Shown here one piece after another: positions 2,975 through 53,503 of a stretch of DNA of 64,000 nucleotides. Each line of letters begins with the position of its first letter. The stretch's first letter is position 1. Below the pieces are notes generated by a model. It was not told the DNA's origin. It worked only from the letters and a program-made list of their open reading frames with translations, and ran no database searches. This stretch comes from Bacillota bacterium (lineage in GTDB: Bacteria; Bacillota; UBA994; UBA5500). Location: assembly GCA_029781045.1 (NCBI GenBank), contig JAKOXL010000024.1, forward strand, positions 23,210-87,209. Reading direction: 5' to 3'. Position numbers and translations under genes: made by a program.

Positions 2975-3424
2975 CTAAGTTATTCTGCGAGCCCTTAACC
3001 AAACAAGCAGGGGGTGCCCCAATCCCACCACCACAACGGCTTCACTGATTCCCAGGGTGATGACACATAGCCAGTAAGGAATTCCTAAAGCTGGGGCCAA
3101 GTAGATACTGACGAGGACTCCGTTGAGCACAACAGGCCAGAGATAGGCTAGCCAGCTGTCTCTTGTACGATAGGTTAGGTAGGCAGCGATCAAGGTCACC
3201 AGGCTACCGCCGAAAATATCTAAAGGCCCGAAGCCTCCCATAATATTGGCTAAAAGTACACCCACATATAAGGCGATGACCGATTCGGGGTATATGATCG
3301 GCAATACGGTCAGGGCTTCGCTGGCCCGAAACTGAATGTGGCCAAAACCCACGGGTGCGACTATGAAGGTGATAGTAACATATAGACTTGCGATTATTGC
3401 TCCTCTTATTAGCTTCCTCGCCAT
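2975..3424 (-). CDS. Small polytopic membrane protein, possibly a QueT-family or ECF S-component-like transporter
   Basis: 149 aa and highly hydrophobic (GFGHIQFRASEALTVLPIIYPESVIALYVGVLLANIMGGFGPLDIFGG). Assignment to QueT rests on recall only and no preQ1 riboswitch is recognisable in its leader. Confidence 0.4.
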   Translation of the reverse strand: MARKLIRGAIIASLYVTITFIVAPVGFGHIQFRASEALTVLPIIYPESVIALYVGVLLANIMGGFGPLDIFGGSLVTLIAAYLTYRTRDSWLAYLWPVVLNGVLVSIYLAPALGIPYWLCVITLGISEAVVVVGLGHPLLVWLRARRIT

Positions 3425-33861: not shown

Positions 33862-34113
33862 ATGCTAAGAGTATCGGACTTGCGTCTTAGAGAGATTGTC
33901 AATGTCTTAGATGGAAGGCGCCTGGGCTTTGTACAGGATTTAGACATTGATCTGGATGTGGGGCGAGTCAAAGGCCTCCTGGCCCAAGGCGGATCCAGTA
34001 AGTTCCTAGGACTGTTGGGTCGAGATGACCTGTACATCGCCTGGGAGCAGATAATACGGATAGGCACTGATGTCATTTTGGTCGAAATAGATCTTCCCAG
34101 GACCGATTATTAG
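33862..34113 (+). CDS. ylmC: YlmC/YmxH-family (PRC-barrel) sporulation protein
   Basis: MLRVSDLRLREIVNVLDGRRLGFVQDLDIDLDVGRVKGL; ~83 aa; GGGAGGGG RBS. Confidence 0.7.
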   Translation: MLRVSDLRLREIVNVLDGRRLGFVQDLDIDLDVGRVKGLLAQGGSSKFLGLLGRDDLYIAWEQIIRIGTDVILVEIDLPRTDY

Positions 34114-34227
34114 GGGGCCGCCAGCGGCCTCCTTTTTGGTTCTGAAAATCTGTTCTAGTTGGCTGGCAGACAAGGCACCTATCAATTAGACTATAAGTAG
34201 AGGTACTAGAGCGAGAGGTGATAGTGT

Positions 34228-34686
34228 TTGAAGTGCCCATACTGTGGAGCAGTTGATAGTCGGGTTATAGACAGCAGACCGACGGAAGAATATACGGCGA
34301 TTCGGCGGCGTCGAGAGTGTACCGGTTGTGGCCGTCGTTTTACCACATATGAGAAGATTGAAGAGTTGCCATTGATGGTGATAAAGAAGGATGGCAGCCG
34401 AGAAACGTTTGATAGGGGGAAGATACTAACTGGGTTATTCAAAGCTTGTGAAAAGCGTCCGGTGAGCGCTGCCACCTTGGAACAGGCGGTAGATGCTATT
34501 GAGCTTGCTCTGCGCAATCAACTGCGACCTGAGGTCAGCTCGCAAGAAATCGGTGAAATGGTGATGGATCAATTGAGTACTATTGATGAAGTAGCCTATG
34601 TGCGTTTTGCCTCTGTTTATCGGCAGTTCACAGATATAAACCGCTTTAGACAAGAACTGGACAAGCTACTGGAGAGACCGCGATGA
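34228..34686 (+). CDS. nrdR: Transcriptional repressor NrdR (zinc ribbon plus ATP-cone)
   Basis: MKCPYCG...DSRVIDSRP...[15 protein letters not shown]...ACEKRPV is canonical NrdR. TTG start after GAGAGGTG. Confidence 0.9.
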
Positions 34687-36491
34687 TTAAATGGGTGCAG
34701 AAACGGGACGGGCGTATTGTCCCGTTCCAAGCAGAAAAAATCGCTGATGCTATCTTTGCGGCAGCTAAAGCCGTAGGCGGCGAGGACCGTAGACAAGCAG
34801 AGGTGCTGGCGGGACAGGTCATTCACCTCTTGCAGCAAAAGGTTTTGGCCCAAGAAGTGCCACAAGTGGAAGAGATTCAGGACTTGGTAGAGAAGGTCCT
34901 GATTGAGCAAGGCCATGCACGGACTGCTAAGGCCTATATTCTTTATCGCAATCACCGTACTCGCATTCGGGAAGCCAAGAGTGAGCTGATGGATGCGGTG
35001 AGTGAGATCTTTCAGGAAGCCGGTAGTGATACGCAGGTGTGCTCAACTCCGCTGGGAAAATTGCAGCGTATCGCTATTGCTGCCAGCGAACGCTATTGTC
35101 TCCACAACTTGCTACCAAGAGACTTTTCCCTAGCCCATCAGCGCTGTCGCATCCATATTGATCGTTTGGCCCATTATACAACAGCGGTTACCGCAGCAGT
35201 AATAGATCTAAGACAGCTATTGGATCAAGGGCAGCAAGTCGGCCGTATTCGGGTACCACAACTATTACAACCTCATGATCTGGCACAGGCTATTCAAGCC
35301 CTTATTGCTGCAGCCCAGAGTGAAACCTTGGAAGAGATTCTCTTCGCCAATTTGGATCAAGCATTTGCTACCATGTGTAGACGCCAGCGACTTGTGATGG
35401 ACTCGCGCCAGTTGCGGTCCTTTGCTCAACGTCTGTTGTCTCATGTGGGTTTAACGCTCATGACCGGTTCGGCGCAGCCCCTCAAAGTCTGTTTTAGTGT
35501 AGGTTTGGAAAGCTCGGAGCTGGGTCAGCAGCTGATACGAGCCCTTTTGGGAGTTCTCGCTCAGGGGAGATCAGGGGCTGCCATTCAGTTCATCTATCAG
35601 CTAGAGGATGGAGTGAACTGGGCTCCCGGAGATAAAGGGTATCCGAATACCTGTTTAGCGCGGCAAGTAGCCCAGCAATGCGGCAACCCTTCATTTGTCT
35701 ACTTTTCTACACTGGGCCCCGATGATGTACAGTTCCTAGCAAGTGGGACTCGCCTGGAAATGACTTCTCCGATCCTCATTTCCCGTACCTATGTAAACCT
35801 GCCTCGCCTGGCATTAGAAGCGGAGAACGGGCGAGACTTCTTGGCCGGCATAGATGCCATTTTTAGCTTAGTGGCGAAACAAGTGGTTCACCGGTCAGAA
35901 ATTCTAACTGCTCTACAACCCTCCGATTTGCCTTTGACAGCCCTGCAAGGATCGGCTACCCGTCAACTGCCGCCACTGGCTATGGCTTTGCTCTTATTGG
36001 TTCCCATCGGCATTGCGGAAGCGTTGCAGGTTGCCCGTCACCGCTTTGCAGATACCTTAGCTATCAACGAAAATGACTTCATTAGTCTACTCAACGAGAT
36101 TTGCGAGCACTGGCGGAACTATTATTCATTAAACCTGCAGATTGGTTTGGTACCTGCTGTCCGCGTTGCTCAGCGTTTCTTTGCCCACGATGTCAATTCC
36201 TTTCCGTTGCTGAGGAACCTTTGGCCGCAAAAATCTAGTTATAGCTACCTTTATGACAATGCTTTATGTGGGGTTTTCCCCAGCGGTCAGGTTGCCCCCT
36301 GGCCGGAATCAAACCAGTTGCAGGAAGGCATCGTCTATGTCGTTCCTATAAGACGTACCATCTGTCTAGCCTGCGGCCAGATTCTCGGACAGGAGGAAAT
36401 CAGGTGTTCAGTTTGTGGCGGAGAACAACTGGGAGAACTGACACAAGATGGAGGCTACATAACTGTCAGTGAGCAACTTGTGACCAATTAA
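34683..36491 (+). CDS. Uncharacterised ATP-cone domain protein with a C-terminal C4 zinc ribbon, translationally coupled to nrdR. Possibly a very divergent NrdD-like protein
   Basis: The N-terminal ~110 aa form a clear ATP-cone ([24 protein letters not shown]...[30 protein letters not shown]). The C-terminus reads CLACGQ-x10-CSVCGG followed by DGGYITV. The ~450-aa middle is A/L/Q-rich without motifs I recognise. ATGA overlap with nrdR. Confidence 0.45.
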
Positions 36492-36599
36492 TAGCAGGTA
36501 ATTGCAGGATTTTAGCACAGTGCAGAGAATAATGGAACAAACAGGGCATGGCCGCAGTCGTATTGCTGGAACGTGCGGGCAGCGGGGGTGAATGGAGCT

Positions 36600-37877
36600 G
36601 TGAAAAAGAAAGGACACAAACGTAGGAGATTTAGGCCCCGCAAATTGCTGAAGCGGCTTATAGTATTGGCTATTTTCCTAGGAATTGGCCTAGGTTTTTT
36701 CTGGCTCGGGCGTGGCGCTTACCGACTGATTGCTAGCTGGCGTGGTCGTCCGGCCTATTTATCAATAGTTGAGGCTCAGCAAGTCAAAGATATGCAGGGT
36801 ATTGCGACTGAAGCCGTTCTGTTGCGGCAGGAGGTAGTGGCTCTGGCCGACAAACCGGGCAGGGCTAATATCATTATTGAGCCAGGGGGGCAAGTAGAAT
36901 CGGGTCGTTTGGTACTGGAAGTGGTGGACAAGGACCTTCTGGCCAAGATTGATGCCGAAATACAGAAACTAGAGAAAGGTCAGCAGCAAGAGACCCCTAA
37001 TGATCAGGGGCTAGCTGACATAGAAAGAAAACTGGAATCTGCCAACAGTGAACTGTTTGCGGCCCTGGACAGGTATAAGCAGGCCCTAAGGCTGCAGGAC
37101 GTGGAGAACTACAAGCCCTTGTATAATACCTTGTCTCAGATTGCTAAAGGAGTAGTGCAGCTGCAGCAAGATCACCTTGTGTTGGCTAAGAGCCAAGTGG
37201 CTTTAGCTGAGCAGCGGCAAGAGCTGGAAGCTCGGCGACAACAGGCTATCGTCCCTGTCCATTCGCCGGTAGCTGGCGCAGTCTATTACTGGGTTGATGG
37301 GCTAGAGGATGAAGCCAGTCCAACCAAGATTACTCCTAATCTGTGGGAGCAGTTGCAGGCTGGCAAGTCGGCCCCGGTTTACACGACCACCGGCGATATA
37401 GAAGTGGCGTCCGGCCAACCGGTGTTTAAGGTGGCTGTAGATGATAAATCATACTTGTTGGTGCAAGTAGATGTGGCCAAGTCGGAGGTCCTGCGCACTT
37501 GGCAGACGATCAGTGTCTGCTGGCAGGATAATGTGGTTTCTGCGCGAGTAGTGGAGCATGAGGGCCTAGACTCGGGGCAAGTATTACTGCTAGTGGAAGA
37601 TCCCGCCGTAGACCTCCCTCGTTTCTTGCAGGTCAGTTTGCATAAAGAGGGAGAGGTCTACTGTTCAATTCCAGCACGGGCTGTGACTACAGTGGAAGGG
37701 CGGAGTGTGGTGTTTGTATTGGATGGTAGCACAGTCAAAGCCCAGCCCGTTGAAGTTGTGCAACAAGCCAACAAGAAGGCGGTAATAGTGGTGGGCTTAC
37801 AACCTGGTATGTCGGTAGTATCCACACCAGAGGGGCTAGTTGATGGTCAGGACGTAACAGAGAGGCTAAGGAAGTGA
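36600..37877 (+). CDS. HlyD-family / membrane-fusion-protein-like secretion adaptor (N-terminal TM, coiled-coil, beta-barrel)
   Basis: Basic N-terminus plus TM (KRLIVLAIFLGIGLGFFWLG), a long coiled-coil (ELEARRQQA...) and a C-terminal beta-rich region. Family assignment by architecture only. Confidence 0.45.
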   Translation: MKKKGHKRRRFRPRKLLKRLIVLAIFLGIGLGFFWLGRGAYRLIASWRGRPAYLSIVEAQQVKDMQGIATEAVLLRQEVVALADKPGRANIIIEPGGQVESGRLVLEVVDKDLLAKIDAEIQKLEKGQQQETPNDQGLADIERKLESANSELFAALDRYKQALRLQDVENYKPLYNTLSQIAKGVVQLQQDHLVLAKSQVALAEQRQELEARRQQAIVPVHSPVAGAVYYWVDGLEDEASPTKITPNLWEQLQAGKSAPVYTTTGDIEVASGQPVFKVAVDDKSYLLVQVDVAKSEVLRTWQTISVCWQDNVVSARVVEHEGLDSGQVLLLVEDPAVDLPRFLQVSLHKEGEVYCSIPARAVTTVEGRSVVFVLDGSTVKAQPVEVVQQANKKAVIVVGLQPGMSVVSTPEGLVDGQDVTERLRK

Positions 37878-51961: not shown

Positions 51962-53503
51962 TTAGAGTTTCTCGCTAATACTCTTAGCTTGCATAAACAG
52001 TTGCACATAGTCGGGTCCGCCGGCCTTGCTGTCAGTGCCGCTCATATTGAACCCGCCGAAGGGGTGGACTCCCACTAAAGCACCGGTGCAGTGCCGATTC
52101 AGATACAGGTTACCCACATGGAACTCAGCCTTGGCCTTCTCTAAATGCTTCCTATTCAGGCTATAAACCGAACCGGTAAGGCCATAAATGGTGTTGTTGG
52201 CGATGGCTAGAGCTTCGTCGAAGTTGGCAGCTCGGATGAAGGCCAAAACGGGGCCAAAAATCTCTTCCTGAGCCAGCCGTGCATCAGGCCTGACATCGGC
52301 GAAAATGGTGGGCTTGATATAGTAACCCTGTCGGTCGTCATACTCGCCGCCCAGGACTAATCGGCCTTCATGGCCGCACTCCCTAATATAGGAAGTGATT
52401 TTGGCAAAGGCCGCTGCATCAATCACTGCTCCCACCGCATAGTTTTCAGCAGCAGGACCAATAGCCAATTGCTTGGTTAGCTCAACTACCCTTGCCAGCA
52501 CCTGATCATAGATGGAATCAACGACGATGGCTCGAGAACAAGCCGAGCATTTTTGTCCCTGGAAGCCGAAGGCTGATTTAACAATGCCTTGGGCCGCCGC
52601 TTCCAGGTCGGCGCTTTCATCGACGATAATGGCGTCTTTGCCACCCATCTCAGCCACGACGCGTTTGATCCAGATCTGCCCCGGCTGGGTGACGGCCGCC
52701 TGCTGGTTGATACGTAAGCCAACAGCCATGGAGCCGGTGAAGTTGACGAAACGGGTACGGGGATGGCTGACCAAATACTCCCCTATTTCGCTACCACTGC
52801 CCGGCAAGTAGGTTACTACGCCTGCTGGCAAGTAGATTTCCCTTAGCAACTCATGGAACTTGGCTCCGATGACGGCAGCCGTATTGGCTGGCTTGATGAT
52901 CACCGTATTACCAGCTACAATGGCCGCTGTTGTCATACCCACCAGAATGGCGAAGGGGAAGTTCCAAGGGGAGATGGCTAGCCCGACGCCAAGTGGAATG
53001 TAGGTGAAGCTGTTGCGCTCTCCGGGTAGTGGCGTGGGCGTTCTGCCGGCACTCAGTTCCAGAGCTTGCCGAGCATAGTATTCACAGAAATCGATGGCTT
53101 CCGCCACGTCCGCATCGGCTTCAACCCAGTTCTTGCCCACTTCTAGAATTAGCCAAGCCGTCAGTTCCGCTTTCCGGCGGCGGATGGTGGCGGCCAGCTT
53201 GAACAGGTAATCGGCTCTCACTTGCATGGGTAGACTGCTCCAGCTAGCGAAAGCTTTCCAAGCCGTCTCCATTGCCAGTTCGGCATGTTCGGCGGCTCCT
53301 TGCGATACGAAGCCGATTACTTCTTGGTGGTTACAGGGATTAAGGGAAGCGAAGGTGCGCTCTGTGGTGATTGCTTGCTCACCGATCATTAAAGGGTAAG
53401 TCTGCCCCAGCTGGCACTTTACTTGGGCAATGGCTGTTTCCAGAACTTTACGGTTCTCCGCCAAGGAGAAGTCGGTTAACGGTTCGTTGCGAAAGGGAAT
53501 CAA
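51962..53503 (-). CDS. rocA: 1-pyrroline-5-carboxylate (L-glutamate gamma-semialdehyde) dehydrogenase
   Basis: [12 protein letters not shown]... N-terminus and ALDH-family catalytic region ([11 protein letters not shown]) closely match RocA/PutC. Confidence 0.85.

Follow-up and report, generated by a model that had tools for sequence, protein, structure and literature searches.

The 64,000-nucleotide stretch of Bacillota DNA analysed here (contig JAKOXL010000024.1 of GenBank assembly GCA_029781045.1, GTDB lineage UBA994; UBA5500; hereafter the window) carries, directly behind nrdR, a gene whose 602-residue product is very probably a pseudoenzyme, that is, a class III anaerobic ribonucleotide reductase (NrdD) that has died catalytically and is retained under selection. 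The NrdD fold persists, and with it an intact ATP cone, a Zn ribbon and a Gly-Tyr hairpin; five defining catalytic features of NrdD are missing from the protein, and annotation as NrdD is unwarranted. Because the catalytic residues and nrdG, the gene for the cognate activase, have been lost, yet purifying selection is strong, it is best regarded as neither a reductase nor a pseudogene. Taken as a whole, the explanation towards which we lean is that this dead NrdD serves as a sensor of ATP and dATP, probably in concert with NrdR. The gene and the parts of its product are arranged in the window as follows:

34683-36491, + strand: whole open reading frame (ORF) of the dead nrdD homologue, 602 residues
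34683-34967, + strand: ATP-cone domain, residues 1-95 (PF03477), the most conserved part of the protein
34968-35177, + strand: linker helix, former NxN-flap region and first core helices, residues 96-165, assigned by alignment and including the HxHD relic H158-I-D-R161
35178-36242, + strand: degenerate alpha/beta-barrel core, residues 166-520, in which Ala171, Ser354, Leu365 and Val replace catalytic residues
35733-35753, + strand: FLASGTR, relic of the finger loop (YMGCRTR in canonical NrdDs), which carries Ser354 at its tip
36363-36416, + strand: C-terminal Zn ribbon, C561-x2-C564-x10-C575-x2-C578, which aligns with the NrdD Zn site
36450-36458, + strand: G590-G591-Y592, remaining from the glycyl-radical loop (RRITGY in canonical NrdDs) and placed by the model at a beta-hairpin tip

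Homology and predicted fold

Orthologues of the same architecture form a clade of 22 clusters at 90% identity which, with 98 other hits, make up the 120 listed of 1619 matches; that 22 orthologous clusters among the matches listed share this architecture indicates that the observation is not due to chance. The orthologues were aligned with 13 canonical NrdDs and, separately, with 70-odd genomic homologues. At the N-terminus, residues 5-93 form an ATP cone (PF03477, 4e-23, 82 bits against a cut-off of 25.8) in which K7, R8, D9, G10, R11, F15, K19 and I20 (motif VxKRDGxxxxFxxxKI) are invariant across the clade and the canonical NrdDs, and the nucleotide-binding N-terminal motif of the cone appears to be intact. 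In the P. copri enzyme, PcNrdD, the residues corresponding to D9 and R11 mediate contacts between cones (PMC11226230).

An earlier note on this DNA, made from the letters alone, had recognised the N-terminal cone, a central part rich in alanine, leucine and glutamine, and a terminal C-x2-C-x10-C-x2-C followed by DGGYITV. All three descriptions hold: the A+L+Q content of the central part is 33.6%, compared with 21.6% in a canonical NrdD, and the ribbon at C561-C578 is followed by TQDGGYITV, with the Gly-Tyr pair at G591-Y592. The note had likewise read correctly the ATGA by which the start of the 602-residue frame overlaps the nrdR stop, and the HlyD-like gene that follows where nrdG would lie. 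The likeness that it saw between the ends of the protein and those of NrdD proves to be true homology by Pfam, NCBIfam, phmmer and Foldseek. It had also described the centre as devoid of NrdD motifs, which is correct for the catalytic motifs but not for the region as a whole, since residues 122-511 are clearly homologous to NrdD (PF13597, 1e-29, 104 bits against a cut-off of 26.2). Of the two identities that the note offered, a new or orphan ATP-cone protein whose central domain is unrelated to NrdD is rejected by the Pfam, PDB and fold matches, and synteny shows descent in place from nrdD instead; the other, a degenerate NrdD-like regulatory protein or pseudoenzyme, is favoured by the loss of the motifs and of nrdG together with strong purifying selection.

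The protein is matched by phmmer to the class III reductase structures of S. thermophilus and P. copri, and an AlphaFold2 model built on a 35-sequence alignment is of high confidence (predicted local distance difference test, pLDDT, 87.3; predicted template modelling score 0.81), with the barrel core mostly above a pLDDT of 90. Comparison of such a model with NrdD had been proposed in the note, and by Foldseek the best 36 matches in the PDB are indeed all class III reductases (E 1e-28 to 1e-12, template modelling score up to 0.71). The model retains a hairpin at the position of the finger loop, with Ser354 at its tip, and strands 583-589 and 592-597 form a C-terminal hairpin that presents G591-Y592 at the position of the glycyl-radical loop. 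Scores against the NCBIfam equivalog models for NrdD fall far under their cut-offs (196 against 764 bits for NF005497; 70.9 against 326 for TIGR02487).

Loss of the catalytic apparatus

The elements of P. copri NrdD that serve catalysis and substrate binding include the finger-loop Cys416, which initiates the radical chemistry, Cys171 of the first strand, Asn435, the NxN flap, the HxHD motif, Glu581, the Gly711-Tyr712 pair and the Zn site (PMC11226230). In the window the thiyl-radical Cys has become Ser354 (YMGCRTR to FLASGTR), and across the clade this position is Ser in 19 of the 22 orthologues, Gly in three and Cys in none. The first-strand Cys is replaced by Ala171 (KTLTCVQI to TAVTAAVI), with Ala, Gly or Ser in the clade, and the catalytic Asn by Leu365 (GRGN to SPIL), immediately preceded by an 8-residue deletion; Asn never occurs here in the clade. 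The NxN flap is gone (RENANxxNS to GSD-TQVCS), as is HxHD (IHIHD to IHIDR), the substrate-binding Glu of TPAE is Val in the window (TPAEG to VPAVR), and two more deletions of about 16 residues each lie N-terminal to the Zn ribbon. Counted by regular expression, NxN, HxHD and the finger-loop Cys are each found in 0/22 of the clade, compared with about 90 of the other 98 listed hits, which are mostly canonical NrdDs. Judged by eye, the region that would correspond to the specificity site of PcNrdD (Glu290, Asn298 and loop 2) seems not to be conserved.

Loss extends to the activase. Searches by tblastn found nrdG neither in any clade locus (within 3-10 kb on either side) nor anywhere in the 64-kb window, whereas most canonical loci have it directly downstream of nrdD; no gene for a radical-SAM activase lies 3' of the dead nrdD, the next gene being the HlyD-like one. 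With the catalytic motifs all replaced and nrdG gone from the locus, every residue needed for nucleotide reduction has been lost, and the protein is predicted not to be a reductase.

The C-terminus has fared differently from the active site. The earlier note had tied its interpretation to conservation of the terminal Cys and GGY positions among orthologues, and for the most part they are conserved: the ribbon cysteines are kept in 15-19 of the 22 orthologues, G591 in 21 and Y592 in 20. The fuller RxxGY is kept in only six, the window itself reading QDGGY, without the Arg. There are, however, exceptions, in that P0012 and P0015 have no Zn ribbon, P0020 lacks the whole tail, and a second group of dead NrdDs (type B, described below) has no glycyl-radical domain. 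These members show that the wider family can do without the Zn ribbon and GGY tail.

Selection on the dead enzyme

The ratio of nonsynonymous to synonymous substitution rates (dN/dS) was estimated by the Nei-Gojobori method from the least saturated pair of orthologues, P0004/P0006 (dS 1.3), dS being saturated for most pairs:

whole protein: 0.065
ATP cone: 0.045
residues 96-165: 0.019
dead core: 0.076
C-terminal tail: 0.082
nrdR (neighbour): 0.017
ylmE (neighbour): 0.061
hlyD-like gene (neighbour): 0.138

Intact ORFs of 557-611 residues are found across all 22 clusters, at a divergence reaching down to 43% identity. These figures argue for strong purifying selection on a gene that is maintained rather than decaying, and a decaying pseudogene is rejected on dN/dS. 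Mean pairwise identity within the clade is 0.87 for the cone, 0.73 for residues 96-165, 0.45 for the core and 0.31 for the tail, compared with 0.68, 0.81, 0.70 and 0.67, respectively, among canonical NrdDs. Constraint has thus shifted onto the ATP cone, which is better conserved here than in the active enzymes.

One further UBA5500 orthologue (L015 2943-3866) is 72% identical over its first 307 residues and then gives way to a run of N; the interruption looks like an assembly gap and apparently not a real truncation.

Descent in place from an nrdR-nrdD-nrdG operon

Upstream of the dead nrdD, the window contains the following features:

34112-34133, + strand: hairpin resembling an intrinsic terminator, 3' of ylmC/ymxH, with a 9-bp stem, 7 GC pairs and a T-run
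34228-34686, + strand: nrdR, 152 residues from a TTG start, encoding the Zn-ribbon and ATP-cone repressor of ribonucleotide reductase genes
34671-34686, + strand: translational-coupling junction, with the Shine-Dalgarno sequence GGAGAG at 34671-34676 and then ATGA

The nrdR product is a full NrdR (TIGR00244, 1.3e-62, 210 bits against a cut-off of 124.65; also PF22811 and PF03477). The ATG of the dead nrdD (34683-34685) overlaps the TGA of nrdR (34684-34686), with GGAGAG 6 nucleotides upstream, and the terminator-like hairpin would delimit the two genes as a separate transcription unit. Overlap of the start codon with the nrdR stop recurs in 10 of 10 clade loci, by 1, 4 or 8 nucleotides (4 in L091-L093), compared with a median gap of +23 nucleotides between canonical nrdR and nrdD.

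Gene order in the clade, taken from the window and from orthologous loci of 78%, 69%, 55%, 50%, 46% and 43% identity, is ftsZ, spoIIGA, sigE, sigG, spoIIR, ylmC, nrdR, dead nrdD, (ylmD), hlyD-like, ylmE, sepF, yggT, divIVA. Canonical relatives, among them L009 (an uncultured Clostridia metagenome-assembled genome, MAG) and L008 (Desulfotomaculum nigrificans), carry nrdR-nrdD-nrdG(-ylmD-hlyD) in the same slot, and most of about 64 further GTDB loci likewise have nrdR-nrdD-nrdG there. Since the slot is exactly the same, the dead gene is the in-place descendant of the nrdD of an ancestral nrdR-nrdD-nrdG operon, from which nrdG has been deleted, in the sigE-sigG-ylmC...ylmD-ylmE-sepF-divIVA region of spore-forming Firmicutes.

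Membership of the NrdR regulon was judged by a pair of 16-bp palindromic boxes about 31-32 bp apart in the promoter. At least one box, at up to 3 mismatches, lies upstream of nrdR in 40 of 64 canonical loci, often as two boxes 31-32 bp apart, compared with 0 of 7 clade loci at the same threshold. The earlier note had suggested that boxes might be sought upstream of nrdR in the window, and none that convinces was found there by consensus or by position weight matrix: at up to 3 mismatches the consensus has no match near nrdR and a single chance-level site at 52179, and with a matrix trained on the canonical boxes the window reaches at best 1.1 bits, where the canonical median is 16.9 and the 95th percentile for shuffled sequence 7.4. 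The deeper-branching loci L010, L012 and L014 retain a single box-like relic of 12-16 bits, 55-85 nucleotides upstream of nrdR (e.g., GCACAATATCTTGTAG), and its counterpart in the window (near 34188, AGACTATAAGTAGAGG) is so far decayed that it scores 1.1 bits. The clade has lost the paired NrdR boxes that mark canonical operons.

Other degenerate NrdD lineages

A search of 1.84 billion representatives at 50% identity with a profile of the clade yielded only three for the clade itself, after which the matches dropped to E = 1e-124. Many of these next matches are themselves degenerate: the finger-loop Cys and other motifs are missing from about 19 clusters for which the alignment covers more than 400 positions. 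If the clade described above is called type A, a second group, type B, comprises dead NrdDs of 609-624 residues from GTDB Dethiobacter and Syntrophomonadaceae MAGs, some labelled Desulfovibrionaceae (loci L033 6001-7875, L039, L047, L051, L058, L069, L086 and L022). In type B proteins the ATP cone and barrel are present and the catalytic Asn is kept, Ser or Asn stands at both catalytic Cys positions, and there is no Zn ribbon and no glycyl-radical domain; their genes lie directly before ylmD, without nrdG and mostly without nrdR at the locus. At L069 a short tblastn match to NrdR (3272-3379, about 36 residues) between ylmC and the type B gene looks like the remnant of a deleted nrdR. Conservation of the ATP cone is 0.85 in type A and 0.78 in type B.

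The remaining cases are more varied. Type C (L018, and L044 6001-8090; 697 residues) keeps the finger-loop Cys and the Zn ribbon, has Ser for the first Cys and GR for GY, and has no nrdG. P0121 (L094 4402-6345, 647 residues) shares the synteny (spoIIR, ylmC, nrdR, the P0121 gene, ylmD, hlyD), again without nrdG, and retains the finger-loop Cys, the Asn and RxxGY, having lost NxN, the Asp of HxHD and the first Cys; it looks like an intermediate state. Types B and C and P0121 all occupy the same slot before ylmD, a gene that at L094 is split into two ORFs. L046 and L078, each isolated, also show partial degeneration of NrdD and have no nrdG; P0128 is an orphan degenerate NrdD. P0127 (L096 4604-7113) is a degenerate NrdD whose gene begins 18 nucleotides after nrdR, without nrdG, in an unrelated neighbourhood (patatin, DivIC, M48 peptidase), so the pairing of nrdR with a dead nrdD recurs outside the Firmicute division cluster.

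Neighbour-joining trees recover each of types A and B as monophyletic and join the two in 200/200 bootstraps for the core and 189/200 for the N-terminal part, although, these trees being distance-based, the grouping could reflect long-branch attraction; a derived finger loop, YF[AS][SN]G, common to A and B supports it. The two types nest within the Firmicute NrdDs, and L046 and L078 branch elsewhere. This separate branching implies that NrdD was probably inactivated several times independently.

Possible functions of the dead NrdD

Because selection concentrates on the ATP cone and on the helices just C-terminal to it, nucleotide sensing is the most likely job to have been retained. Binding of ATP or dATP would give rise to a signal, either conformational or oligomeric, for which the dead barrel would supply a dimeric scaffold, and we consider it probable that the protein is an adenine-nucleotide sensor or regulator of this kind. 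NrdR oligomerises through pairs of ATP cones (PMC9110341). Given that the gene is always translationally coupled to nrdR in the clade, the likeliest mechanism would be one that acts on NrdR: made with it in a ratio fixed by the coupling, the dead NrdD would modulate the nucleotide-dependent oligomerisation of NrdR, or its repression of the remaining reductase genes of the genome, either within a hetero-oligomer or as a competitor at cone-cone interfaces. That it works specifically through NrdR is put forward tentatively, and a broader proposal, in which NrdD-derived pseudoenzymes form an unrecognised, recurrent family of ATP/dATP sensors whose member in this clade joins or competes in NrdR ATP-cone oligomers, is slightly more doubtful. 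A ribonucleotide reductase is universally needed, and NrdR is not known to have any role but nrd regulation; these genomes presumably contain other reductase genes, since each needs a reductase and NrdR is strongly conserved. No second reductase was found in the 64-kb window among ORFs of at least 330 residues, in a Pfam check made outside the division and cell-wall gene cluster.

Several considerations weigh against this scheme. Nucleotide binding, contact with NrdR and a regulatory effect are all inferred from sequence, and the pseudoenzyme reading requires another reductase in these genomes whose presence is itself a deduction. Adjacency to nrdR was inherited from the ancestral operon and so is weak evidence by itself, and a few canonical nrdR-nrdD pairs overlap too. 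Type B dead NrdDs persist though nrdR has mostly gone from their locus, so the core function may not need NrdR, and the model leaves the conserved Gly-Tyr hairpin and the Zn ribbon without a role.

The main rival takes up some of these points. It holds that the dead NrdD is a nucleotide sensor independent of NrdR, a dimer that binds ATP/dATP and regulates some other partner, for which candidates would be a class II or class I reductase without an ATP cone of its own, a dNTP-metabolising enzyme (dNTP, deoxynucleoside triphosphate), or a division or sporulation factor encoded nearby. The persistence of type B without nrdR at the locus, the orphan P0128 and the conservation of the cone in both types A and B are all in keeping with such a role, as is the location of the gene among division and sporulation genes, where in many relatives ylmD adjoins it. 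That location, however, is ancestral for active nrdDG too and therefore says nothing about partners; moreover, coupling to nrdR is universal and tight in the clade and no candidate partner protein has been pinpointed, and we judge this rival unlikely. A neofunctionalised enzyme, with a glycyl radical placed on G591 by an activase encoded elsewhere or with some non-radical barrel chemistry, would give a reason for retention of the G-Y-L hairpin in 20-21 of 22 orthologues and of the Zn ribbon in most, for purifying selection on the tail (0.08-0.15) and for a barrel that is confidently folded in the AlphaFold2 model. Against this, all known glycyl-radical enzymes need the finger-loop Cys, which here is Ser or Gly and never Cys; the Arg of RxxGY is not conserved, an activase is encoded at none of the loci, the tail can be dispensed with, as P0012, P0015, P0020 and the whole of type B show, and no new cluster of clade-specific, catalytic-type residues is evident. 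The chances of this being the answer seem very small.

The two remaining explanations deny either function or loss of function. A functionless relic, that is, an inactivated nrdD in the course of being lost and kept open by chance or by polar effects on its neighbours, might be suspected from the disappearance of the catalytic residues and nrdG, from a core and tail that evolve much faster than in active NrdDs, from members without the ribbon or the whole tail, and from several independent degenerate lineages, which suggest a repeated route to loss. It is largely refuted by dN/dS values of 0.065-0.08 even in the dead core and tail, akin to those of bona fide neighbours, and it sits badly with full-length frames kept open throughout so diverged a clade and with an ATP cone more conserved than in active enzymes; we rate it no higher than a neofunctionalised enzyme. 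At the other extreme, a divergent but active class III ribonucleotide reductase is implied by some public annotations, NCBI having named P0015 and P0020 'anaerobic ribonucleoside-triphosphate reductase', and the Pfam NRDD match does lie above its gathering threshold. Examined motif by motif, this explanation is rejected: neither Cys remains, the Asn, NxN flap, HxHD and Glu have gone too, and nrdG with them, there are deletions at the finger-loop region and before the ribbon, the equivalog scores are 3-5 times under their cut-offs, and activity is chemically implausible without the radical Cys. It is the least credible of the four, and a dead NrdD that senses ATP/dATP, probably with NrdR, remains the explanation we prefer.

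Neighbouring genes

Downstream of the dead nrdD lies a conserved neighbour that stands outside the system:

36573-37877, + strand: HlyD-like membrane-fusion protein gene (PF12700, 5.5e-22)

Its product also gives a match, under the cut-off, to the C-terminal domain model TIGR02828, 'putative membrane fusion protein', and the gene adjoins ylmE-sepF in dead-NrdD loci and canonical loci alike. In the window both nrdG and ylmD, which intervene in relatives, are absent between the dead nrdD and this gene. The ylmD gene (Cu-oxidase_4 / YfiH family) is present before the hlyD-like gene in deeper members of the clade and in canonical relatives, as seen when the gap at 36492-36572 of the window is compared with L005 11767-12573 and L010 3438-4256, and it is missing throughout the sub-clade to which the window belongs (the window, L011, L015 and L091-L093).

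The start codon of nrdR is TTG in the window, in L001-L004 and in L091-L093, except for L091, where it is GTG. Gene calls on Logan contigs gave a 103-residue NrdR that begins at an internal ATG and is missing the N-terminal Zn ribbon; the full 152-residue protein is intact.

Significance and comparison with known systems

Ribonucleotide reductases are essential and heavily studied enzymes, of which the ATP cone is the master switch. No description of a dead class III NrdD was found in the literature searched, and public records name the proteins of the clade either 'hypothetical protein' or 'anaerobic ribonucleoside-triphosphate reductase'. Such labels would wrongly credit uncultured anaerobes with a class III reductase in metabolic reconstructions. 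More generally, the repeated loss of chemistry with conservation of the ATP cone suggests that NrdD has, or easily gains, a non-catalytic role in nucleotide sensing. If the proposed link to NrdR is true, it would offer a direct hypothesis for how NrdR-based control of dNTP pools is tuned, and the dead NrdD would be a second, previously unknown protein component in the transcriptional control of dNTP synthesis.

The closest relatives are the canonical NrdDs themselves, as known from P. copri, S. thermophilus, T4 and T. maritima. With these the dead NrdD shares its ancestry, its genomic slot after nrdR and its overall plan, namely an N-terminal ATP cone, a linker helix, a 10-stranded barrel with a finger loop, a C-terminal Zn ribbon and a Gly-Tyr hairpin. 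It differs from them in that the thiyl-radical Cys, the first-strand Cys, the Asn, the NxN flap, HxHD and the substrate Glu are all replaced, in being about 70-100 residues shorter by virtue of three deletions, in the absence of nrdG and in the shift of selection to the ATP cone. There is also a resemblance to NrdR, which is encoded in the same translationally coupled unit and likewise combines an ATP cone with a four-Cys Zn ribbon. The ribbon of NrdR, however, is N-terminal and binds DNA, whereas that of the dead NrdD is C-terminal and derived from NrdD, a dead barrel of about 450 residues lies between its two domains, and it is not known to bind DNA.

Catalytically inactive homologues of class I reductases have taken on new roles in the case of yeast Rnr4 and the betaherpesvirus R1 homologues M45/UL45. 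The parallel is that in each a reductase subunit has lost its catalytic residues and is kept by selection for a non-catalytic role. Those examples, however, are class I proteins of eukaryotes and viruses, whereas the dead NrdD is a bacterial class III catalytic subunit that carries an allosteric ATP cone.

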